64,000 nucleotides of DNA from a virus, in the IMG/VR virus record IMGVR_UViG_3300045988_167652. One strand, 5' to 3'. Made by a program: the position numbers and the translations under genes. The notes beneath the pieces are model-generated. The model saw only the letters and a list, made by a program, of their open reading frames with translations, did no database searches and was not told the origin of the DNA. Each line of letters begins with the position of its first letter. Within the stretch, counting starts at the first letter, position 1. Positions 1,226 through 61,570 of the stretch are shown piece after piece.

Positions 1226-1909
1226 ATGACTTACGGAGAAGCTGTTTATATGATTCTTGATCAATTGAAACTAACATCCGATGATGCTAATTTTAATGAA
1301 AATCATGTTATATTCTTACTTAATAAGTATAGAGCTTTAGCTATTAAAGAAGAATATGAAAGAACTAAAAAGGAACTTGATGAATCAAATAAACAATTAT
1401 TATGTTTAGATTTAATTGAAGTTCCGGCTATTTCAGGAGAAGTATGTGAAGAAGGAACTTATCTTAGAAGCGTAAATAAACTTCCTAAAATTTTAAATCT
1501 TCATCATAATGATATTCAAGTTACTATTATGGATTATTTTAATAGTAACATATCATATGTTTCAGTAGATAGATTTAGATGGGTAGGACATAATAAATGG
1601 CTAAAAAATATTATTTATGCTACTATAGCTCCTGATAATTATGTTTATTTAAAATCTGATAATCCACAGTTTCTTTATCTTGAAAAAATAAAATTATCAG
1701 CCATATTTGAAGACCCTGAAAAAGTACAAGATTTATTATGTGATAAAGAAAATTTTGATACTATATGTGATATACTCGAAAGAGATTTTCCTGTAGAAAT
1801 GGCATTAGTTCCTTCCATACTTGAAAGAGTAAGAAGAGAACTTTATCAATCTTTATATAATAAAGAAGATGAAAATAATAATGCAAAAGATGATTTAGCT
1901 GAAAGATAA
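1226..1909 (+). CDS. Virion-module protein of unknown function (227 aa), TAG-free
   Basis: Intact standard-code ORF ending in TAA, located in the structural block. The N-terminus (ILDQLKLTSDDANFNENHVIFLLNKYRALAIKEEY) resembles small podovirus structural/adaptor proteins by eye only. Confidence 0.7.
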   Translation: MTYGEAVYMILDQLKLTSDDANFNENHVIFLLNKYRALAIKEEYERTKKELDESNKQLLCLDLIEVPAISGEVCEEGTYLRSVNKLPKILNLHHNDIQVTIMDYFNSNISYVSVDRFRWVGHNKWLKNIIYATIAPDNYVYLKSDNPQFLYLEKIKLSAIFEDPEKVQDLLCDKENFDTICDILERDFPVEMALVPSILERVRRELYQSLYNKEDENNNAKDDLAER

Positions 1910-1954
1910 ATTAAAATATAAACTAAAAGACAGTATAGATAATATAGTACAAAT

Positions 1955-2677
1955 ATGGATGGAAATAAGGTAGGGTTTGGGGGGTATGTGGAAATAAGGC
2001 CTAATTGTAATGACATTAAATAGGAAAACAATAGTAATATTATTACAAAAAGAAAAAGAGGAAGACCAAGAAAAGGTGAAGAAGTTATAAAGAAATCAAA
2101 GAGAGGAAGGCATAAAAAAGCAGGTAGAAAAAGAAAGAAAAAACTAAGTAAATATGTAATAGTTAATCATAAAAGAATACTTAGAACTACTTATAATAAA
2201 CTCTTTGTAGAACCTGTAAAACAAACTAAACTTGGTAGATATCATAAAGTACTATATGCTTATCATTATTTTAGATATTGTAGAAAAAACTGTAGAGAAA
2301 AATATAACAGAGGAAATTCAATAAGTGAAAAAGAATTTTATAAACTTTTTAGTAGAGCTATTGAATTAATGACTGAAAGTTTATGTTAGTATCAATATCT
2401 TACCATACCTTATTTAGGAGAAATATCTATAAAACATAATAATAAAATCACTTATAATGGTAAGTATAAAAAATGTATCAATTATCCTAAAACAGTGGAT
2501 AGATTTTAGAAAACAGGAGAGAAGAAAGTAATATATTCCTATATAAAAAGAGATTATAAGATATATTTTAAATGTGGTACAAGACTATATGACAAACTAA
2601 AATTTAAACCTTCAAGATTATTGAAAGATAAAATCGACGAATATAATGAAACACTAAAAAATGAAATTAATATATAA
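1955..2677 (+). CDS. HU/IHF-like DNA-binding protein with a basic AT-hook-like N-terminal region (240 codons, 3 TAG)
   Basis: ATG 1955 is preceded by an in-frame TAA at 1940. TAGs lie at 2021 and near 2387 and 2507; the gene ends at TAA 2675-2677. It contains KRKRGRPRKG (a GRP AT-hook core). The C-terminal half (IPYLGEISIKHNNK...YKIYFKCGTRLYDKL) follows the HU/IHF beta-arm pattern. Confidence 0.5.
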
Positions 2678-2685
2678 TACATACT

Positions 2686-3345
2686 ATGGCTAATATAAGA
2701 GTTATTTTAGATAAATTATCCAGACATCCATTACTAAAGAGATTATCTTTAGATGCTGTAATTGATTATACAGTAGAATTCATGGAAAAAACAAGGGTAC
2801 TTAAAGATTTACAAGAAAAAGAAACTGATCTTGAAGTAAATAGTTATGTAGCATAGTTACCTTGTGATTTCTTTAAAATAAAAAGCATACATTATAATAA
2901 TTATGAAATGCTTCCTTCAACTTCTATAAGAATAAAAGATAAAAATGTTATTCCTACTTATAAAGTAGTAAACAGAAAACTATAGACTTCTATAGAAGAA
3001 GGAAATGTTACTTTAGAATATTATGCTATAGCAACAGACAAAGATGATTTACCTGTTATTCCTGAAAACTCTTTTTTTCAAAAGACACTGTATAGTTATA
3101 TAAAGAAAGAGGAATTTTCAATTCTTTATGATTTAGGTGAAATAAGAAAAGATGTATATGAAGATGCTTGTTAGAAATATGCTTGGGAAGTTGGTTAGTA
3201 TCAGAGTTCACAGCATGAATTAAATGATGGAACTATGTAGAATATAGCTAATATTCAAGGAACAGTTATTCCTGATAAATATAATTTCCATAAGGGTTAT
3301 GGAAATATAAACAGATCATAGAAATTAGTAATACATAATACATAA
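2686..3345 (+). CDS. Virion-module protein (219 codons, several TAG)
   Basis: ATG 2686; frame 1 is interrupted only by TAG and ends at TAA 3343-3345. The translation is protein-like (MANIRVILDKLSRHPLLKRLSLDAVIDYTVEFMEK...). Confidence 0.6.
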
Positions 3346-3395
3346 GACAACTATGAACCTACCCAACAAACTTACACATTTAAATTATTAATACT

Positions 3396-6300
3396 ATGTT
3401 AAAACAATAGCAATATATTATAAGAGGAATGCAAAGAGATGCTTCTCCAAGTAAATTTAATAAAGAATTTGCTTATGAGAATCGTAATATCAGGATTACA
3501 TGTAATGATGATAATACACTATTTTCATGTACTAATGAAAAAGGGCATTTACCTCTTACTTTACTTAATAAAACTCACGGGTGGACTACTTAGCAACATT
3601 ATCTTCCAGGTAAATGTATAGGACAAAATGTATTGAATAACTATCTTACCTTATTTACAAAAGAATATAATACGGATAGAATATACAGATTACACATGGA
3701 AAATGATATAATGTATTATTATTTTTTATTTGAAGGTAATTTAGGATTTGATGAAAACTATCCTATTGAAACTGTAGGAGTATATGAATCTAAAGATATA
3801 TAGAAAGTATATTTTGTAGATGGTAAAAATCAGGCAAGAATGATTAATATTTCAAATTCTGCTATACAAAAACATAATACAATAAGGGAAAATAATCCTA
3901 AAGGAAGTATGCTTAATTTTGTTCCTTTCTTAGAACTTAATGAACAAATTAAAGTTGAAAAAGTATATGGTTCAGGACATTTTTAGTCAGGAACTATATA
4001 GTATGCTTTTTCTTATTATAATCTTTATGGATAGGAAAGTAATATATTTCATGTAACTCCTATATATTATATTACTCATCCTGAAAGAGGTGCATCACCA
4101 GATGAAATATGTAATTGTGTATTTAAAATAGATATAAAAAATCCTGATAGGAGATTTGATTTTTTAAATATTTATTCAATTCATAGGACTGCTTACAATG
4201 GTTAGCCAGTAGTTAAAAATGTAGGTCAAATATCTGTAAAGAATGCTGTAAATACTTTTTATGATACGGGTAAAACAGGTATGTTAGTTGATCCTACTTA
4301 TTTATTATATGCTGGAGGAGAAGAATTAATTCCCTCAACTTTTGCTTATAAAGATGGTACTTTATTTATGGGGAATATACATCTTAAAAGAAAGTTTATA
4401 GATTCAAATGTTAAGAAACAACTTAAATCATATTTAAATGAAATATCTTACAATACATAGAATGAATTACATTATGTATATAATAAATATGAAGTATTGA
4501 AGTAGAGCAACACAAATAGTTCTTTATTTTCACTTAACCTTAATTCAAGATAGATTAAACATTTTAAATATCAAGAAGCAGTAAGATTAGGATTATAGTT
4601 TTAGCATAAATCAGGTAAATGGAGTGATGTAGTACATATAGGAGATTATATTATTAAAGCACCTATAAAAACTAATTATGAAAAGATAGACATACAAATA
4701 CCAGAAATAAAATATAATAAATATACAAATACGTAGTGGTTAAAAGATAATGATTATGTTAAAGTAAGAGCTGTAGTATCTTTTCCTGAAGAATAGTCAA
4801 GATTAGTATTTACTCAAGGAGTACTTAATCCTACTATTTTTAATGCTTAGGACAGATATTTAAATACTTGTTTTTCATAGTCAAGTCCTTTCTTTAGACC
4901 TTTTCCCTCATTTAAAGAGTTTGACTTTAAAAAAATAAAAAGATTTAATTTAGACTTAACTAATTTAGATAGTATAGAAGGATATATAGGAAAAATTGAT
5001 GGGTCAGCTAAAAACAGAAAAAGTGTTCATGGATTTTATTCGGAGAGTGACGATGATTTTAGAAATACTTTAATAGAATTAAATTCATTTGGAAATTATC
5101 ATATAGAAAATAATGAAATAAGTTCACTTAATTTTGAGACTAATGTATCTGAAGGATGTAATTATAATAATTATACTTAGGATTTAGCTACTTATGGAAG
5201 TCATATTCAGTTTAGACATAATGGAGAATTATATCCTAATTATAAAAGAGGATGTGAAATTCAAAATATGTACAACAAACATATCTATGAACATCATGTA
5301 TTTGATATAAAGAATACTAATTTTGATAATGATTATTTTGAAGATGCTGGAAGAAGATTTATTGTACAAACATCAGAAAACTGTTATCTGTATGATGTAA
5401 AGAATAAAAAAAAAGAATTAATAGATGAGTTTATACAAAAAAGATCACATAATTATTATGTAGATTCATCTATTATTACTATGAACTCTCCTGAAATTGA
5501 TTTTAATAATAACTATAAATCAGGAACTTTTGAAGATTTAAATCTTAGAATAGTGGGTTATGTACCTTTAACAAGTAATAATTCCGATAGTTATATTGAT
5601 TTAAAAGGCACTCCCATGAATGTATAGAACACGGGATTACTTCCCTTTAATGTTAATTCTGAAAATATTAATATGATGGGATGGAAAATGAAGGCCACTT
5701 CATTAGAATATCACGATAGATTATTTAATATAGGAACTAATTATGTAAGTAAGAATAGAAGAAGATTTGTAGAAATATATCATTGGAATAATAAATTAAC
5801 TAAAAGATGGATCAATGATAATGGTACAGCCAAACCATTCAAACGTAGGAATATAAGATTTGCAAGTGGTGATGATTATTTAAAAAGAGAGGCAGTACCT
5901 ATACCTAAACAAGCTTTTGATTTTAATCCTATATTCTTTACTTATAATTCAAACAGTCCTTATTATGGTAATGCTATTTATAGATAGAGATCACCTCTTA
6001 CAGGAAGTAAGATTATTTTGTTTAATAGAGAAAATGGGGTATATACATTAACCGATGTATTATTTCCTTCAGATGACTTTGGAACAGTAGTAAATTATAT
6101 TAATTCACAAGCATTCAGTAATGCTATCAGTGTTCCTAATAGTAATTGGATAGAATATGATCCTAATCCATAGGAAGGAGGAGGTGATGGTAATCTTGCT
6201 GCATTTCAAGCTCAAGTAGAAACTACTGTAGGAGTAATACTTCTTCCTGATGATGATTCCGGATGGAACAGTAAAAAAGAAAATGATACTAATAAAGAAG

Positions 6301-41666: not shown

Positions 41667-42212
41667 TTATTTATCTTTATTTTTTACCCATACTACTAAA
41701 TTATCATAATCGATAATCCATCTATTTTTTATTAAAAATGTTCCTCCAAGTATTCCATCTATCTTTATATCATATTTATCTTCAATAACTGTAAAAGAAA
41801 CTGAATCTTTTAATTCTATGAAATCATCGGATAAAACATTATTTTTTATTGAAAAATATACTCTACATACAGGATTTATATCTGTTTTATCATTTATAGT
41901 AGTTACTCTTACTCCTTTTTCAAGATATATTTTATCTTTTATAGAATCTAATATAGATTTAAATATTAAACTTCTATCTGATCCTGAATCAACAATGAAA
42001 TTATATTTTTTTCCTTCTATTTCAGCTTTTATTATAGGTATTCGTAAGGTTTCTATAGAACTTTTTACATTAATAAATTCTCCTTTTTGATTAAAGATTA
42101 AATTTTCATATCTTCTTACAGCTTGTTTATGTATATATAAGAAATATATAAAATAAAAAATTGATAATATAAATAAAAGAAAGCTTATCAATATTACATT
42201 ATTCATATGCAA
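41667..42212 (-). CDS. Membrane-anchored retropepsin-like (clan AA) aspartic protease
   Basis: It has an N-terminal hydrophobic helix (VILISFLLFILSIFYFIYFLYI), the active-site motif FIVDSGSDRSLIF (D-S-G), and a late IDGILGGTFL flap-like motif. Confidence 0.65.
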   Translation of the reverse strand: MHMNNVILISFLLFILSIFYFIYFLYIHKQAVRRYENLIFNQKGEFINVKSSIETLRIPIIKAEIEGKKYNFIVDSGSDRSLIFKSILDSIKDKIYLEKGVRVTTINDKTDINPVCRVYFSIKNNVLSDDFIELKDSVSFTVIEDKYDIKIDGILGGTFLIKNRWIIDYDNLVVWVKNKDK

Positions 42213-43302: not shown

Positions 43303-43794
43303 TTAAGTCATAAGAGTACTTACCCCCCTACAACCATTACATTTCTTAATTATATCAATAGTTTCTAATATTTGAGATTTATTTCTTACTTCAAAGAAAT
43401 AAGCTCCTTTATAATTTCTATTTAAATAATCAAGAAACAATTTCTTTTTATAGGGATACACATCATTAGCGTATCCCTTTCCTTCAATTACATAAAAAGG
43501 TATTTCACTGTTAGTACTTTTAACGATGAAATCAGGTTTATAAGTAATATTTACAGGTTTAGTAGTTATTTCTCCCCAATATTTACTCTTTTTAGATAGT
43601 GGAGAGAATACTTTTATATTTTCATGTTTATGTAATTCAACTAATGTAAATACTGTTTTTTCATAGTCAAATTCCATATTATTATCCTTTAAATATTTAT
43701 AGATTACTTTATCTAAAGTACTTCTAAACTTAATTTCATCATATATTATTTCTTTAGAGTTTAATACCTTTCTATTTAATTTAAGATGATTCAT
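43303..43794 (-). CDS. Small PD-(D/E)XK endonuclease, T7 endonuclease I-like pattern
   Basis: ITYKPDFIVKSTNSEIPFYVIEGKGY resembles the PDF...E.KG catalytic core of junction-resolving endonucleases. Confidence 0.45.
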   Translation of the reverse strand: MNHLKLNRKVLNSKEIIYDEIKFRSTLDKVIYKYLKDNNMEFDYEKTVFTLVELHKHENIKVFSPLSKKSKYWGEITTKPVNITYKPDFIVKSTNSEIPFYVIEGKGYANDVYPYKKKLFLDYLNRNYKGAYFFEVRNKSQILETIDIIKKCNGCRGVSTLMT

Positions 43795-44377
43795 GTTGTT
43801 GGTATTCTATAGCTAATAATTTAATTTTTTCAGATTCTGACATAGGTTGTGTGTTGTTAATACTTAATCTAAGATCAGCTTTAATAGGGCTTTCACCATT
43901 ATTGTAAGAAATAACATATGAGAATAAAGTTTTTTTCATGAGCCAATTAAATATTCCTTGATATAAAAAACTTACTTCATTTTTACACATATATACTTCT
44001 TTGTTATTATATATCATAGAATATAATATAAGTTTATAAGTACCATTAAGGCGTTTTACCCACAGCATTTTTTTACCTATAAATATCTCTACAGTTTCCT
44101 TTTTATTTTTTAAATTCCTGTTTAAATATATTTTTACTATTCTAAAATTTGAATCATTAAATACAGTCCATAATTTAAAACTATATGCAGATATTTCCTC
44201 TGTAACCACTCTTATATCTGTAGGAATTATCGTATATAATAAGGTATTGTTTGTTATTTCCCTATTTAATATTACATATTTTTCATTTTCTCTATGTAAA
44301 AAACTATAATTATTTTTACTTATAGTGATAACCCCTAAAAAATTTTTATAACTGTTATGATTAATACTTAATGACAT
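43781..44377 (-). CDS. Hypothetical protein (198 aa)
   Basis: Intact ORF abutting the E1-like gene. Confidence 0.6.
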   Translation of the reverse strand: MSLSINHNSYKNFLGVITISKNNYSFLHRENEKYVILNREITNNTLLYTIIPTDIRVVTEEISAYSFKLWTVFNDSNFRIVKIYLNRNLKNKKETVEIFIGKKMLWVKRLNGTYKLILYSMIYNNKEVYMCKNEVSFLYQGIFNWLMKKTLFSYVISYNNGESPIKADLRLSINNTQPMSESEKIKLLAIEYQQHESS

Positions 44378-45157
44378 TTATCTTTCTATTAAAGTTAATA
44401 TATTGGCATTATACTCTCTAAACAAAGGTGGAGGAGGAAATCCTAAATGACTGTATCTAATATGTTCAACTACAGTATTACCTATTAATCCTGCACATAA
44501 AGCACAAACATAAGTAGTTTGTTTTCTATTGCAAGTTACTGCATCAGCTTCATCATCTGAAAATAAAGATTCTTCATACTTTTGAAGTGAATATTCATCA
44601 GGTAATACAGTATAAATTTGTATGGTATCAATAGACATTCTTATATCTATAAGTGCTTTATTCCTTTTAAACTCTTCCTTTACTGTTATTACTTTGTTTT
44701 TCCAATCCTCATATAATATATATCTTCCTTCCATATTATCTATACATATAAAAGTATAATCGGGAAAAGAATTTAAAATTATTGGTATATGTGCTAAGAA
44801 AACATTATGATTTGCAATATAAGTATTATTAAGACCAATATTCATATGATATATAAACTGAGTTATTACATCGGTTTTTTTTAAATTGCACATATTAGTC
44901 CCAAATAATTGACCTCCTAAATTATGTTCTTCAACTATGTCATTATCATATAAATATAATGCTTTAGGAGAGAATCTTGATAGAATAAAGGATAACCATG
45001 ATCCTACTCCACCTAATCCTACTACTATCATAGTTTTCTCTTTTAGAAATTCAACATAATCCATTCCGGAATCTCTTGAAACTTCATTATGTTTTCTATC
45101 ATAAAGCCTTGTCAAGACTTCTATAGTATGATTAATTGATTTTTCGTTTATTTCCAT
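44378..45157 (-). CDS. E1-like / ThiF-MoeB family adenylyltransferase
   Basis: The Rossmann motif is IVVGLGGVGSWLSFILS, followed by LYLYDNDIVEEHNLGGQLF and later the Cys-containing TCNRKQTTYVCALCAGLIGNTVVEH. This is the typical ThiF/E1 adenylation domain layout. Confidence 0.75.
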   Translation of the reverse strand: MEINEKSINHTIEVLTRLYDRKHNEVSRDSGMDYVEFLKEKTMIVVGLGGVGSWLSFILSRFSPKALYLYDNDIVEEHNLGGQLFGTNMCNLKKTDVITQFIYHMNIGLNNTYIANHNVFLAHIPIILNSFPDYTFICIDNMEGRYILYEDWKNKVITVKEEFKRNKALIDIRMSIDTIQIYTVLPDEYSLQKYEESLFSDDEADAVTCNRKQTTYVCALCAGLIGNTVVEHIRYSHLGFPPPPLFREYNANILTLIER

Positions 45158-46449
45158 GATTCTACTATACTTTTTACTTCTTTCATTAAATTGTTATTCG
45201 GATAATTATTTATTACTTCTTCCATACATAATAATAAATCGTCTTCTGTATATTCATTACCATAAAAGTTAAGAGCAAACATAAATCCTTCTTCTAATAT
45301 CGAATAAAGTTTATTATCCGAAACTCCATAGCTTGATAAATTTATATAGAATTTATCTAATACTTCATTAGCAGATTTACTACAAAAGAGTTCTCCTGTA
45401 GCTAAAAAACATAATATCTTTTCACATATATAATACATTTCTCCAGTTACTTCTATATTTTCTCCTAATGTATTTACTAATGAATATGTTCCATTAATAT
45501 CATAAAACTTTTTTCCTGAAGGTTTTGTATTAACTGTATTCTTATTATTTACAATGCTTGTTTCTTTCTTTTCTTTAGGATTAGTTATAGGAGCATATTT
45601 ATCCCAATAACCATATTTATCATTTATATCAGTAGTTTTATCATAATAATTATCCATGTCATCATATGAGTTATTAAACATATTATATTGACCATAATTA
45701 TTATAATGAATATTATAATTATAATTATTATGTAATTTCTTTTTAGCTTCTTCTTTCTTTCTTTTAATTTCTTTTATTTGTTCAAAGCATTCATTTGTAC
45801 TTTCTTTATTCCATTCAAGAATACAATCTCTTATTTCATAACTTTCAGAAACAGTTTCTTCTTCTTCAGTATATACTTTCTCTTTAGTTATAGGATGTAA
45901 ATATGAATTAACAGGTTTAGTAATGGTAGTAATTTTAAATCCTACTTTAGCTATAATATCCATAGCATTATTTACTATTATACTAAGAAATACGGGATAA
46001 TTACTTTGTTCAAATGCTTTAGAGTCAGTTGCAGAAAAAAAGACGTCCATCTTATTGTGGCTGTGCATGTTACCCATATAACAATCTATTAAATCATTAA
46101 CTACCATGTAATGGGTTATTTTAGGATCAGTAACATCATATTCGGTAGTTGTTTGACTTCCCACATCAAGAGGAATTAATCCTTTGACATGATAAATAAA
46201 CATATTATTTTCTTCAGTTACTGAATAAAATATAACCCCACTCCATTCTTCTGATGGTGAAGCAAAATTATATTTCTGAATTTGATCTATAATGTTATCA
46301 GGAATAATAACTTTATCTTTTAGTGTTTTACTTTTATTAGTTTTTATTTCTAATTCAGTATTATTAGGAACTGCTTTAGACGATATTTTAATAGTCTTTG
46401 AAGATTTTTTAGTATCTTTTGACTGAATCTTTTTTGTTTTATTTGACAT
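45148..46449 (-). CDS. JAB/MPN (JAMM) metalloprotease domain protein with long C-terminal extension
   Basis: An upstream Glu lies in SEEWSGVIFY, and MHSHNKMDVFFSATD fits HxHx7Sx2D. It overlaps the E1-like gene by 10 nt. Confidence 0.75.
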   Translation of the reverse strand: MSNKTKKIQSKDTKKSSKTIKISSKAVPNNTELEIKTNKSKTLKDKVIIPDNIIDQIQKYNFASPSEEWSGVIFYSVTEENNMFIYHVKGLIPLDVGSQTTTEYDVTDPKITHYMVVNDLIDCYMGNMHSHNKMDVFFSATDSKAFEQSNYPVFLSIIVNNAMDIIAKVGFKITTITKPVNSYLHPITKEKVYTEEEETVSESYEIRDCILEWNKESTNECFEQIKEIKRKKEEAKKKLHNNYNYNIHYNNYGQYNMFNNSYDDMDNYYDKTTDINDKYGYWDKYAPITNPKEKKETSIVNNKNTVNTKPSGKKFYDINGTYSLVNTLGENIEVTGEMYYICEKILCFLATGELFCSKSANEVLDKFYINLSSYGVSDNKLYSILEEGFMFALNFYGNEYTEDDLLLCMEEVINNYPNNNLMKEVKSIVESWK

Positions 46450-46451
46450 AT

Positions 46452-47612
46452 TTATAATGTATATTTATTAGTGTTAAGAAATCTGTATATATTTTCTTTT
46501 AATTTTTCATGAGTTGATATGTCTATAATATCTGGTAAATTTCCAGATACCATAAGAATATTATACAAATGTATTATCAAACATAAAAAATTAGGATCAG
46601 CTATTAAAATACAGTTATCATTATTACTATAATTATTCGACTTAATAACTTTAAATTTTATATCTTCCTTATTAAATCTTACTTTATTATCAAAAAGAGT
46701 AAAGGTAAAGTTATTTATTCTTTTATTATTTTTTATATTTTCTTTTATATATATTCTTCTATCACTTTCTACCGCTGTTATCAATAAGGATTTTATAAGA
46801 TCATATTCATCTCCTTCTAAATATTTAAGTCTGTTTAGTATAGAATTTGTAGCTACTATTAACAATTGTTCTATAGGATAATTAAATATAGAATGTATAT
46901 TGAAGTTTATATCCTTAATTTTATTTGTTTCATATAGATATAAATTTTTATCATATAATTCAAATATCACATTCGTTATTATTAAATTTATATTTTCATT
47001 ATCCAATATATTAATGTTATCATATCTATTACTTACTTTTATATAATCATGAATGGAAATTAATTTTGATTTTGTATCTGTTATTTTCGATATTCTACAA
47101 TATGCAGATTGAGTAGTCTCTATTGTAAGATATTGATCCATTAATGTGAATAAAGTAATAAACCATTCTTCTGGTAATTCCTCATTATCATTTAATAATA
47201 AATTAGAATAATTATAATGATTTATTAATGGGGAATTATTTCCTAAACAAAAGTCTCTTACAATAGTTGAAGTATTTAACTGATATAAATGAGAAAAATA
47301 AAAATCAGCATTAAATTCTTCTTCAGTTAAGGTCATTCTGATACCTTTAGGATAATATACATAACCACTATTATCTATAGTAAAACATACATATATATCT
47401 TTAATAGTATGATCTTTATTACTTTGTAAAGAGTGCATTTTAACTTCAGGATAATGAATAATTAAAGCATATTTATCACCTTTTTCATTTGAATGTACAA
47501 TTACTCTATCATTACCATAATATTTTAAGGCATAAATAAAGGCCTTACAGACTTTATTTCTGTAAGACCTTATATTTGGTAATGATTTTACTTTACTAAA
47601 CGGTAAAACCAT
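46452..47612 (-). CDS. Hypothetical protein (386 aa) in the E1/JAB operon
   Basis: Intact ORF ending 2 nt before the JAB gene start. I could not secure any recognisable motif. Confidence 0.65.
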   Translation of the reverse strand: MVLPFSKVKSLPNIRSYRNKVCKAFIYALKYYGNDRVIVHSNEKGDKYALIIHYPEVKMHSLQSNKDHTIKDIYVCFTIDNSGYVYYPKGIRMTLTEEEFNADFYFSHLYQLNTSTIVRDFCLGNNSPLINHYNYSNLLLNDNEELPEEWFITLFTLMDQYLTIETTQSAYCRISKITDTKSKLISIHDYIKVSNRYDNINILDNENINLIITNVIFELYDKNLYLYETNKIKDINFNIHSIFNYPIEQLLIVATNSILNRLKYLEGDEYDLIKSLLITAVESDRRIYIKENIKNNKRINNFTFTLFDNKVRFNKEDIKFKVIKSNNYSNNDNCILIADPNFLCLIIHLYNILMVSGNLPDIIDISTHEKLKENIYRFLNTNKYTL

Positions 47613-47630
47613 CTTTTTTTTGTTTAATGT

Positions 47631-48218
47631 TTAAAACATTCCTCTGAAAAGTTTTTTATCTTCTTCAGAAATTCCTGAAGTACAAGAATTAGATTTTGTT
47701 TTAACTTTTACTTTAATTCCTAATTCCTCTTCAATAGCTGCAAGCCTACTTTCTACTAAATTAGCCCAGTCATTAAGATTTACTGAATTACTGTTCATTG
47801 TATTAGTACAGCAATTTGATTTACCATATTTTAATACAAATCCAGCTAATATTTCAGTTTTTACTTGTGAAATATTGCCTATTTCTTTTTTAAGATTAGG
47901 ATTATTTTCAATGATTCTCTTAGCTTCAGCCATCAGTTCTTTTCTATCTACAGCAGAAGAAATCTTTTTATCTTCCTGCATCATTGAGAAGATAAGGTTA
48001 GTATAAGTAGTACCTCTAAGAACTACTTCTTTAGGAATAATCGCATCTCTATTATCAACATTAAAAGAGGATTTTGAATATCCTTCAACCATACGGATAT
48101 TTTCGTAGTTAATACCTTCATTATCCATTACATCGAGTAAATCACCTAATGTGTTAAACTCCCCACTAAATTCATAAGTTAATCCATTTTGTGGATCAAT
48201 CACTTTAATTGTTCTCAT
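47631..48218 (-). CDS. Hypothetical protein (195 aa)
   Basis: Intact ORF whose start overlaps the primase gene stop by 4 nt. Confidence 0.6.
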   Translation of the reverse strand: MRTIKVIDPQNGLTYEFSGEFNTLGDLLDVMDNEGINYENIRMVEGYSKSSFNVDNRDAIIPKEVVLRGTTYTNLIFSMMQEDKKISSAVDRKELMAEAKRIIENNPNLKKEIGNISQVKTEILAGFVLKYGKSNCCTNTMNSNSVNLNDWANLVESRLAAIEEELGIKVKVKTKSNSCTSGISEEDKKLFRGMF

Positions 48219-49240
48219 TGTTTTTTACTTTTTAAATTTAAATTTAAATCGCAGATATGTATAAGTTTATTAATAGTTTTACATAGAATTTCCTTACCAT
48301 GAATTTCATAAAGATCACTGCTATCCTTTACTTTTAAGTGATTAGGAATTTCTATTTGTGGTATATCGAATAACTTTGATATTTTATGACCATTCATTCT
48401 TCCCCAGTTTTGAGAGGCTTTAAAGTCATTATCATAAAGTATATAGATTTGGTTAAATCTGTTTTTTAATTGATTAATTATTTTTTTCTTAGGTATAATA
48501 GATTCAGCTTGTAAGGAAATTGAAGGAATACCTGTATGATAAGATATAACCATAGCATCTTTTTTTGAAGATGTAATGATTAATTTTTCTCCTTTTTCAG
48601 GTAAAGTATGCCATAATTCCCACACTGAAGAATCTTGTTTGTTAATCCATTTTTGATTTTTATTATATGGTTGATATATCTTATAACTTATCTTATTGTC
48701 TTTATTTTCTATATAAGCATAAGCTAATCTATTTGTATAATAAGGATATGTACCAGTTTTAGTATATATAAAAATCATATCTATAGGAACAACATAACAA
48801 CTCTTTAGATAATCTACAGGTAATCCATATTTACCTGTCCAAAAGTTTATATCATTCTTATCCCATTCTCTTATTCTAACTTTAATATCAATTGTTTTTG
48901 ATACTTTAGTTCTTTTTGAATGGTTTATAGTAACACATCCTTTTGAATAATTTCTAAGCATATCATTATAAATCATAGATAATGTATCTCTATAATTTAA
49001 ATGATGTTTGGTCATTAACAGATTAAATATATTTCCAGATTCTCCAGTAGCAAAATCTTTATATCTAATAGAATTATTTCTATAGTAAATACCGAATGAA
49101 GGATTTTTATCCTTTCTTAAAGGACTATTTATAAGAAAAGGAACTTGCAAAACTCCAAAATAAAATGAAAGTATTTTAAGTTCAGATACTTTTGATAAAA
49201 TATAATCCAAACTTATCGGTATTTTTCCTATAGAAATCAT
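48215..49240 (-). CDS. DnaG-like primase (degenerate zinc-finger region + TOPRIM)
   Basis: SPLRKDKNPSFGIY...YKDFATGESGNIFNLLM parallels the DnaG zinc-ribbon region but lacks the cysteines. The TOPRIM-like part is LIITSSKKDAMV...IYILYDNDFKAS (DxD). Confidence 0.65.
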   Translation of the reverse strand: MISIGKIPISLDYILSKVSELKILSFYFGVLQVPFLINSPLRKDKNPSFGIYYRNNSIRYKDFATGESGNIFNLLMTKHHLNYRDTLSMIYNDMLRNYSKGCVTINHSKRTKVSKTIDIKVRIREWDKNDINFWTGKYGLPVDYLKSCYVVPIDMIFIYTKTGTYPYYTNRLAYAYIENKDNKISYKIYQPYNKNQKWINKQDSSVWELWHTLPEKGEKLIITSSKKDAMVISYHTGIPSISLQAESIIPKKKIINQLKNRFNQIYILYDNDFKASQNWGRMNGHKISKLFDIPQIEIPNHLKVKDSSDLYEIHGKEILCKTINKLIHICDLNLNLKSKKQ

Positions 49241-61451: not shown

Positions 61452-61495
61452 TATCGGATATTGTTCTATTGTTATGATAAACTACGAACTATAAG

Positions 61496-61570
61496 TGTTC
61501 CTTATTAGACTTGAACTAATACTCTTTTCCTTATGAGGGAATTGCTCTAACCTACTTGAGCTAAGGGAAC
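61496..61570 (-). tRNA. tRNA with CAU anticodon (elongator Met or Ile2 type)
   Basis: A 75-nt cloverleaf on the minus strand. Acceptor is GTTCCCT/AAGGAAC (one C-A mismatch); D-arm is GCTC-AAGTAGGTTA-GAGC; anticodon arm is ATTCC-CTCATAA-GGAAA; T-arm is ATTAG-TTCAAGT-CTAAT; discriminator is A. It lacks the three G-C pairs of initiator anticodon stems. Confidence 0.85.

Follow-up and report, generated by a model that had tools for sequence, protein, structure and literature searches.

A five-gene block in the replication module

The virus genome listed in IMG/VR as IMGVR_UViG_3300045988_167652 was analyzed over a stretch of 64,000 nt (hereafter, the window), with a focus on a block of five minus-strand genes that we denoted A to E and that may encode a phage-owned pathway for a ubiquitin-like protein (Ubl). 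In the direction of reading, the block consists of gene A (47631-48218, 195 aa), gene B (46452-47612, 386 aa), gene C (45148-46449, 433 aa), gene D (44378-45157, 259 aa), and gene E (43781-44377, 198 aa). Genes A and B are separated by 18 nt and genes B and C by 2 nt, C and D overlap by 10 nt (45148-45157), E directly abuts D, and all five genes end in a TAA stop codon. An initial annotation of this region had described four open reading frames (ORFs), with a 10-nt overlap between a gene for an E1-like enzyme (D) and a gene for a JAB-type metalloprotease (C), and all four were found on the minus strand at the coordinates above. It missed the fifth gene and the wide spread of the block.

Relatives of D were recovered by tblastn in 74-83 phage records, including crAss001 and its relatives, cr85_1, cr106_1, cr111_1, cr112_1, cr126_1, cr128_1, DAC15, the PhiCrAssBcn isolates, Kolpuevirus, Dulem virus 41, bajarodcaudo virus 1, and the Fpv/FPSV phages of Flavobacterium psychrophilum. 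Most of these records name the homolog of D "thiamine biosynthesis protein" (ThiF), and one names it "E1 enzyme family protein"; homologs of C are labeled "metalloprotease domain containing protein" in GenBank. A search of phage records at the DNA level with the window gave no match. A pattern scan of IMG/VR identified 341 contigs with a relative of D.

We then scanned 92 loci with hidden Markov models (HMMs) of the families, comprising 80 of the 341 IMG/VR loci, the annotated loci, and the window. The order A-B-C-D-E was found in 70 of these loci, and most of the others end at a contig edge or carry an insert in A or C. The block consistently opens with gene A, and E lies directly 3' of D in 84 of the 92. 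The same order occurs in nine loci from genome assemblies and in the isolates crAss001, cr85_1, cr111_1, cr128_1, Dulem virus 41, and Flavobacterium phage FpV4; in crAss001 the block corresponds to gp79-gp78-gp77-gp76-gp75, beside the primase gp80. The initial annotation had called for a survey of synteny across Crassvirales genomes; in the loci scanned here, A and B accompany the E1 and JAB genes as obligate partners, and the order is fixed in 70 of the 92.

Gene E, the fifth syntenic member, has only three well-conserved positions and gave no match against Pfam and PDB; comparisons with NCBIfam, PHROGs, and PADLOC likewise yielded no consistent match. Its product could be a target of the pathway, an adaptor, or an unrelated protein.

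Gene D: an E1-like adenylation domain

The product of gene D is a minimal adenylation domain of the E1/ThiF type. It matched the Pfam ThiF family above cut-off (E-value 2.4e-15), and a family profile of seven sequences matched UBA5 (2.8e-13) and MccB (6e-13) in the PDB, with further matches to PaaA, TcdA, MoeB, ThiF, Uba1, UBA3, and SAE2 and to the bacterial proteins BubCD (3.7e-5) and Cap2 (6e-5). D also matched the PADLOC E1-E2 model (1.5e-11) of the cyclic oligonucleotide-based antiphage signaling system (CBASS).

Conservation was counted in about 30 non-redundant homologs per family, which for the JAB and E1 families share 20-33% identity with the window proteins. D contains GLGGVGS and DNDIVEEHNLGGQ, and its C-terminal part carries C209, C218, and C221. 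The nucleotide-site set of E1 enzymes (G47xG49G50, D71, K94, D140, and R145) is kept in 35-36 of 36 homologs, and 34-36 of 36 keep R28, the glycine loop, D71, D73, N79, Q83, K94, D140, R145, D171, and R173. C209 is invariant (36/36) and lies within C-x-x-K-Q-T. Alignment to known E1s is limited to the N-terminal 125 of the 241 positions of the D profile, and the C-terminal half with C209 is family-specific; our own comparison suggests that C209 may be equivalent to C184 of ThiF or C187 of MoeB. Judged by these matches and motifs, D belongs to the E1-like (ThiF/MoeB/UBA) adenylation-domain superfamily.

The initial annotation had raised the possibility that D falls into a ThiF/MoeB clade of cofactor biosynthesis. 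D scored 22-44 bits against the NCBIfam equivalogs of these cofactor pathways, whose cut-offs are 152-376 bits, and its best ThiF score was 43.5 bits against a cut-off of 159. These scores place D outside all cofactor-pathway equivalogs of NCBIfam. No CxxC zinc motif or rhodanese domain was found in D, and no thiamine or molybdopterin genes were found in the neighborhood of the block.

Many D homologs carry N-terminal extensions of 50-230 residues (in loci L001, L016, L020, L024, L038, L068, and others), which are highly variable, often acidic, and of low complexity and do not occur in the D protein of the window. A fused E2 was considered for the extension of the longer homologs, such as crAss001 gp76, and was rejected, the extension being variable, acidic, and devoid of Cys. 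The homologs also share a conserved motif, I-P-x-N-S-x-S/T-L...T-S-R-F-S, just before the Rossmann fold. An apparent E1 match in a Moraxella "phage" proved to be a host MoeB gene lying beyond attR.

Gene C: a JAMM peptidase

Gene C carries the motif E68...H129-S-H131-x7-S139-x2-D142 within a JAMM/JAB domain at about residues 45-170 (45940-46317, minus strand). Of 32 non-redundant homologs with 20-26% identity, 30-32 retain each of the residues E68, H129, H131, S139, and D142. The single sequence remained below the cut-off of the Pfam Prok-JAB family (E-value 0.004, 17.4 bits versus 25) and matched the PADLOC JAB model (7e-5). All 11 PDB matches of the family profile were CSN5 or Rpn11-like and in register on HSHx7SxxD, the best with an E-value of 0.014. 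C is homologous to crAss001 gp77 (BLASTP E-value 5e-19). We therefore assign C to the JAMM/JAB (MPN+) metallopeptidases. Its N-terminus is Lys/Ser-rich, and a C-terminal region of about 200 residues contains no known domain.

The E1 motifs, the C-terminal Cys, and the intact JAMM motif reported in the initial annotation were all located in D and C. Its identification of the two proteins as E1-like and JAB is supported by the Pfam ThiF match, by the PDB matches of C, and by the JAMM residues, which are conserved among homologs.

Several related phages have a JAB gene that is broken up by an insert in the very codons for the JAMM motif, after GLIH/HSH and before FFSGTD. The inserts at 4139-4351 of locus L031 and 3477-3723 of locus L017 are group I introns (RF00028; 69.8 and 76.4 bits, respectively, above the gathering score). 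An insert at about 3980-5156 of locus L019 contains a LAGLIDADG-like ORF, and the JAB gene of locus L030 is likewise interrupted. In the intron-bearing JAB genes, the catalytic motif must be restored by splicing.

Gene A: a candidate Ubl precursor

Gene A encodes a candidate Ubl precursor that consists of an N-terminal module (residues 1-89; 47952-48218, minus strand) and a separable C-terminal part (residues 90-195; 47631-47951, minus strand). It is homologous to crAss001 gp79 (BLASTP E-value 8e-9) and gave no match against Pfam, NCBIfam, PHROG, PADLOC, and PDB. The N-terminal ~89 residues form a conserved module whose family consensus ends in K-K-I-x-S-G and which in the window ends in K84-K-I-S-S88-A89. 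E45, P62, and K84 are invariant in 29 of 29 non-redundant homologs, S88 is kept in 28 of 29, and position 89 is Gly in 28 of 29 and Ala in the window, where the Ala is fixed among the 18 close relatives of the window protein. A conserved small residue (Gly) at the C-terminus, which is a hallmark of Ubl modifiers, is thus present at the end of the module. Ser88-Ala89 is the predicted site of both JAB cleavage and E1 activation.

Past the Ser-Gly, the family continues with a linker of variable length, a conserved helical motif of about 40 residues (R92...N115-x-S/T117...L124), a charged stretch of low complexity, and a short motif at the C-terminus. Our guess is that the C-terminal part is a DNA-binding motif of the helix-extended-helix type. 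An E2 in this part, as in BubAB, was considered and rejected, the conserved segment of about 40 residues being judged too short for an E2 fold.

The strongest evidence on gene A is a natural split of the gene. In loci L043, L079, and L072, a free-standing ORF for an HNH homing endonuclease of 154-170 aa (2433-2897 in L043 and 2236-2748 in L072) lies two codons past the Ser-Gly of A. The upstream ORF is 91 aa long and ends in ...KKIKSG-KF or ...KKIRSG-IC, i.e., two residues past the Ser-Gly, and the remainder of A is encoded by the downstream ORF, which starts with MNTNN-MTR(T/A)EAY. A comparison of L043 with L072 gave ratios of nonsynonymous to synonymous substitution rates (dN/dS) of 0.10 for the upstream half and 0.34 for the C-terminal part, which indicates purifying selection on both. 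Because A is split just after the Ser-Gly and selection maintains both halves, the N-terminal module works as a free polypeptide that ends within two residues of the conserved Gly. A group I intron was also considered as the insert that splits A, but none was found by Rfam, although the same search identified the introns in the JAB genes.

The initial annotation had guessed that the N-terminus of A is a beta-grasp domain. The hydrophobic pattern of A fits strand-strand-helix-strand-strand-strand. The word-indexed homolog search for A returned only close relatives (at least 68% identity), and it returned few homologs of B. The AlphaFold model of A, built from 18 close sequences, had a mean predicted local distance difference test (pLDDT) score of 53.3, with residues 1-40 (strand-strand-helix) at 66-86, and a Foldseek search of the PDB with this low-confidence model returned noise. 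The best PDB profile match of the module was the ubiquitin-like DWNN domain (E-value 0.75, not significant). An hhalign comparison with ubiquitin, NEDD8, SUMO, and ISG15 aligned the module over the full length and in register without reaching significance (P = 0.086), and one with ThiS/MoaD gave a poor alignment (P = 0.049, not significant). The guess thus has indirect support from the conserved module ending in Ser-Gly and from the natural split, but the similarity in fold does not reach significance. We consider a beta-grasp fold for residues 1-89 of A plausible.

Gene B: a candidate E2-like carrier

Gene B belongs to a large family without a known domain. An exhaustive profile search recovered 2,895 clusters (50% identity) at E-values of at most 1e-3 and 2,034 clusters at E-values of at most 1e-10. 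The conserved core at about residues 45-175 reads IIxYPEVxIxN(E/S)...R...Y-x-H-S-H-x13-C-x-G...(W/V)ES, within which S107, H108, C122, G124, and E165 are invariant in 33 of 33 non-redundant homologs; among 149 diverse members of the family, at least 90% retain them. Apart from the Cys of the E1, B has the only invariant Cys among the block proteins. H108 and C122 are spaced by 14 residues and follow predicted strands, a layout that resembles the HPN...Cys of E2 enzymes.

The initial annotation had proposed B as a possible E2-like component. The invariant His...Cys agrees with this proposal, but no profile method links B to an E2 family. The window protein, seven diverse homologs, and 101 diverse members were compared with Pfam, NCBIfam, PHROGs, PADLOC, and PDB, and no family match was obtained; the single PADLOC "E2" match among the 101 members (E-value 0.0059) was at noise level. 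The AlphaFold model of B, from an 11-sequence alignment, had a pLDDT of 33.7 and was unusable. A Foldseek search of the PDB with it gave no significant match (best E-value 0.2); UFC1, RWD, Atg10, UbcH5b, UBE2R1, and Cdc34 were present among the top 50, none of them significant. The hhalign comparisons of B with eukaryotic E2s (P = 0.38) and with the D family (P = 0.73) were likewise not significant. The match of the His...Cys motif does not by itself establish E2 membership. On its pattern of conserved residues, B is a candidate E2-like carrier or transfer enzyme, for which an E2 fold is plausible.

Comparison with known systems

Among the closest known systems are the bacterial anti-phage operons Bil (BilABCD, ISG15-like): they consist of Ubl, E2, JAB, and E1 genes in the order BilA-B-C-D (10.1101/2023.09.04.556158; PMC11601596), i.e., four separate genes in an order identical to that of A-B-C-D, and neither Bil nor the phage block encodes an E3. 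The Ubl BilA has a conserved C-terminal Gly, which in some homologs is followed by overhangs of 2-9 residues (10.1101/2023.09.04.556158). In contrast to Bil, the block described here is carried by a phage and lies inside the replication module. Instead of two fused ubiquitin domains, A has one small module and a C-terminal part of about 100 residues; D is confined to one adenylation domain of 259 aa and lacks both the IAD-AAD-CYS architecture and the canonical Arg; and B, at 386 aa, has no detectable homology to E2. None of the known Ubl and E2 models gave a family-level sequence match to A or B.

In type I Bub operons (6E.1/DUF6527; BubAB, BubCD, BubE), the Ubl is the N-terminal part of a fusion protein, as the candidate Ubl module is in A, and the JAB domain cuts the Ubl-E2 fusion directly after the conserved Gly (PMC11601596). 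The E1 is minimal in both systems, and BubCD is the match of the D profile given above. However, type I Bub has Ubl-E2 and JAB-E1 fusions, whereas the phage has a separate gene for each known or candidate component, and the segment fused to the A module is short, mostly helical, and too small for an E2. Type I Bub also works through oxyester (Ser) intermediates, whereas D and B of the phage keep an invariant Cys. Pfam scans found no DUF6527 in the block.

The only defence-library matches of the phage E1 and JAB were to Cap2 and Cap3 of CBASS. Cap2 substrates end in Gly or Ala, and the JAB protein Cap3 cleaves at that C-terminus (PMC10097602); the same alternation of Gly and Ala is found at position 89 of family A. 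CBASS differs in that no CD-NTase or effector gene is present in the phage block, in that Cap2 is an E2-E1 fusion whereas D has no fused E2, and in that the candidate substrate of the phage is a small dedicated module rather than an enzyme.

A phage precedent for a Ubl with a C-terminal domain beside a JAB gene is known from the TAPI-TAPK pair (JAB + NlpC/P60) of Lambda/T1. There, the N-terminal Ubl of TAPI terminates in a conserved Gly and is linked to a small C-terminal domain, and the adjacent JAB peptidase TAPK is predicted to release the Ubl (PMC1779556). Unlike the present block, this pair includes neither an E1 nor a Cys enzyme and belongs to the tail module rather than the replication module. 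No sequence similarity of the block to TAPI or TAPK was detected.

The sulfur-carrier systems ThiS/ThiF, MoaD/MoeB, CysO/Mec+, and QbsCDE use E1 adenylation domains of the same superfamily as D, and in those that contain a JAB peptidase, it trims a C-terminal extension of the carrier, which can be compared with the C-terminal part of A. They differ from the block in that the phage motif is not Gly-Gly, no rhodanese, zinc motif, or sulfur-insertion partner is present, and the genes are viral. The initial annotation had also listed PRTRC, a cassette of plasmids and integrative and conjugative elements that, like the block, is built around a ThiF-family protein on a mobile element. This comparison did not hold, as only D touches the PRTRC ThiF model TIGR03736 (E-value 0.0048, 16 bits versus a cut-off of 145); no other PRTRC model matched A, B, C, or E, and no ParB gene was seen beside the cassette.

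A second set of related genes was found in the Xanthomonas jumbo phage PhiXhv-12 (locus L101). Its 227-aa E1 was matched by the D-family HMM (E-value 5e-26) and is also Arg-less (NLPNQ). It is the last of three adjacent genes at 1739-5615 of the locus, being preceded by a 140-aa ORF ending in ...KASGG and by an 892-aa protein; topoisomerase genes follow. The 892-aa protein contains RIRIHPHMAVPSSQESHGSLCLGSF, an IHPH...SLCLG motif, and Cys-rich termini, and hhalign aligned its motif in register on the core of B (P = 0.013). The trio may represent another phage set of Ubl, E2, and E1 that lacks a JAB. A search of IMG/VR for relatives of the PhiXhv-12 E1 found none. As a lead, the Arg-less E1 subfamily may travel in phages with small proteins ending in Gly and with His...Cys-Leu-Gly proteins.

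Proposed pathway and alternative explanations

We infer that the block encodes a phage pathway that processes, activates, and probably conjugates a Ubl, in an arrangement like that of the Bil and Bub operons. A would be made as a precursor, which the JAMM peptidase C would cut just past the Ser-Gly (Ser-Ala here), yielding a Ubl-like module of about 89 residues and a free C-terminal fragment. D would adenylate the C-terminus of the module and may load it onto the invariant Cys209, from which it could pass to Cys122 of B, with His108 nearby; as an E2-like carrier, B would then move it to a target, and C might also be able to reverse the linkage. Because the genes are co-directional, overlap or nearly abut, and lie inside the replication module, the cassette is expected to be co-expressed with the replication genes and to act on a protein of replication or defence, from either the phage or the host.

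Several observations weigh against this pathway. The Arg of the NLxRQ motif is replaced in D by Gly82 (HNLGGQ), with Gly in 35 of 36 homologs, and the alignment with UBA5 shows the change directly, NMNRLF of UBA5 lying opposite NlsGQly. Canonical E1s use this Arg at the ATP site, where it contacts the phosphates of ATP, and the Arg-less family could have an altered chemistry or depend on R28. We treat Gly82 as a family-specific variant that gives no ground for excluding D from the E1 superfamily. Profile libraries, PDB profiles, Foldseek, and hhalign revealed no significant similarity of A to beta-grasp proteins or of B to E2s, and the AlphaFold models of both proteins are of low confidence. 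In hhalign, B also aligned with the JAB family of the cassette, YxHSH lying on GLIHSH (P = 0.043, not significant). At positions 61, 63, and 106, about 90% of the B family carries N, E, and H, respectively, but the B protein of the window has lost these residues and carries S61, Q63, and F106; with F106 in place of the family His, the invariant set of B would therefore argue for thiol chemistry and against a His-His metal site. In CBASS, Ala in place of Gly at the C-terminus of the substrate lowered conjugation (PMC10097602). Because of the Arg-less E1 and the missing fold evidence, we hold the pathway to be only just on the probable side. The more far-reaching proposal that a large clade of Bacteroidota crAss-like phages runs a complete Ubl cascade (comprising a pro-Ubl, a JAMM enzyme as maturase/deconjugase, a minimal E1 without the Arg, and a Cys-dependent carrier of a new type) as a core replication program is put forward tentatively, as something short of probable.

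The absent Arg, the fold evidence below significance for A and B, and the restriction of the alignment with known E1s to 125 of 241 profile positions would also suit an enzyme that acts not on A but on a peptide, a small molecule, or a nucleic acid, like MccB, PaaA, and TcdA, which are among the closest solved relatives of D; C would then be a general processing protease, and A and B would be replication accessories that share the operon. We consider this improbable, as it leaves unexplained the near-invariant Ser-Gly/Ala at the domain boundary of A and the split just after it, the strict five-gene synteny across sequences of about 20% identity, and the constant position between B and the E1 of a JAMM peptidase, whose family is tied to Ubl processing. 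No more probable is a sulfur-carrier pathway, in which the JAB would trim A (as in Mec+/CysO and QbsD/QbsE), the E1 would adenylate it toward a thiocarboxylate, and B would use the sulfur during replication to produce a nucleotide, DNA base, or cofactor with a thio modification. Models of ThiF, MoeB, and TcdA are indeed those that D matches best in NCBIfam, the layout of a Ubl with an extension, a JAB, and an E1 is known from sulfur-carrier operons (Iyer et al. 2006, PMC1779556), the cassette lies among genes of nucleotide metabolism and replication, and B has an invariant Cys. However, the ThiF/MoeB equivalogs are far under their cut-offs, D has neither a rhodanese domain nor CxxC zinc motifs, no recognizable sulfurtransferase, PP-loop ATPase, ThiG, or MoaE-type partner is present in the five-gene block, and family A ends in Ser-Gly or Ser-Ala rather than in the Gly-Gly of sulfur carriers.

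Bacterial Ubl systems target phage structural proteins (10.1101/2023.09.04.556158), and D and C match the PADLOC models of CBASS, which is compatible with a role in counter-defence, an idea also raised in the initial annotation: the cassette would undo or mimic host Ubl immunity (Bil, Bub, or CBASS Cap2/Cap3), for example by a JAB that strips the host Ubl or a decoy Ubl that saturates the host enzymes. This role could coexist with the conjugation pathway, but we regard it as more doubtful still, since a full E1 and a Cys enzyme exceed the needs of a deconjugase and nothing in the analysis shows Bil, Bub, or CBASS in the hosts. Anti-defence genes are usually accessory and variable and lie in early or hypervariable regions, whereas the block keeps a fixed place in the replication module of every related locus examined, and family B comprises about 2,900 clusters. 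The GenBank labels, finally, would make D the ThiF of thiamine biosynthesis, i.e., an auxiliary metabolic gene, and C an unrelated metalloprotease. This is very improbable and is effectively refuted by the failed equivalog thresholds (32-44 bits for the ThiF equivalogs versus cut-offs of 152-275); moreover, ThiS, ThiG, and ThiH are not nearby, and in the replication module D stays tied to A, B, and C.

To our knowledge, prokaryotic Ubl conjugation has so far been described as a weapon of the host against phages (CBASS Cap2/Cap3, Bil, and Bub) or as sulfur chemistry. Operons of Ubl, E2, JAB, and E1 in bacteria and JAB-Ubl pairs in lambdoid tail modules are already known; new here are a phage-owned full set that keeps a constant place in the replication module throughout a very large clade, two partner families (A and B) without detectable known relatives, and an E1 variant without the canonical Arg. 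A literature search for crAss-like phages together with ThiF, or for Crassvirales together with a phage ubiquitin-like system, found no report; most subscription journals lay outside the search, and an earlier mention is possible. The proposed pathway would bring Ubl logic to the phage side, in the replication module of highly abundant human-gut viruses and of phages of a fish pathogen, as a virus-owned counterpart of bacterial Bil and Bub that would tag proteins of replication or defence in the phage or the host. Conjugation by the cassette, if it takes place, would mean that phages control replication or host proteins at a level not described before, and it would offer for study two uncharacterized families with clear catalytic candidates, along with the Arg-less E1 variant. 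The cassette is directly testable, since crAss001 (gp76-gp79) and the Flavobacterium phages are in culture. The analysis also corrects the widespread mis-annotation of D homologs as "thiamine biosynthesis protein".

Genomic context and other features

The block is preceded on the minus strand by a DnaG-type primase gene (48215-49240; match to PHROG 12622, DNA primase, E-value 1.2e-52), which overlaps A by 4 nt and which we regard as context outside the cassette. The primase also adjoins the block in crAss001, cr85_1, cr111_1, cr128_1, and Dulem virus 41, and in FpV4 the toprim gene is separated from A by a UDG gene. Downstream of the block, scans with Pfam, NCBIfam, and PHROG identified a DUF1064/resolvase-like gene, a PD-(D/E)XK exonuclease gene, an aspartyl-protease-like gene, and PolA. 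The PolA of the window shares 38-44% identity with PolA of crAss-like phages of the Steigviridae, and the source record of one B homolog with 94% identity names it "Crassvirales sp." The replication module of a crAss-like phage, in which the initial annotation had placed the genes, is thus supported by the PolA identity and by the flanking primase, exonuclease, and PolA genes.

Two of the loci from genome assemblies lie on long contigs: A-B-C-D-E is present in L099, a 640-kb contig of a metagenome-assembled genome (MAG) of Bacilli, and A-B-C-D in L100, a 374-kb contig of a Puia sp. MAG. These blocks could stem from the integration of a crAss-like element, from mis-assembly, or from an artefact of binning. 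The other seven loci are on contigs of 3.7-111 kb, three of which are phage-sized (88-111 kb).

On the plus strand of the window, the interval 3384-30376 contains almost no long ORFs in the standard code over 27 kb. Because reading TAG as sense in this interval yields five giant ORFs of 1886, 686, 688, 1813, and 3908 aa, TAG appears to be recoded in the late or structural module. The standard code leaves the replication module on the minus strand, and the cassette with it, intact. The sole tRNA of the window is a tRNA-Met at 61495-61570, and a suppressor tRNA was not found there.

Promoter and terminator scans were uninformative, the DNA being AT-rich. A hairpin with a 13-bp stem and a T-rich tail (47539-47571, minus strand) lies inside the 5' end of B, about 40 nt past the start codon; it may have matched by chance, or it may serve regulation or attenuation between A and B. 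Between the PolA and exonuclease genes, a 181-aa ORF (41667-42212, minus strand) with a TTG start and an N-terminal hydrophobic segment encodes a retropepsin-like aspartyl protease domain (Pfam Asp_protease_2, E-value 4.6e-7). Such a gene is unusual content for a phage replication module, and Dulem virus 41 has a "retropepsin-like protein" at a comparable place.

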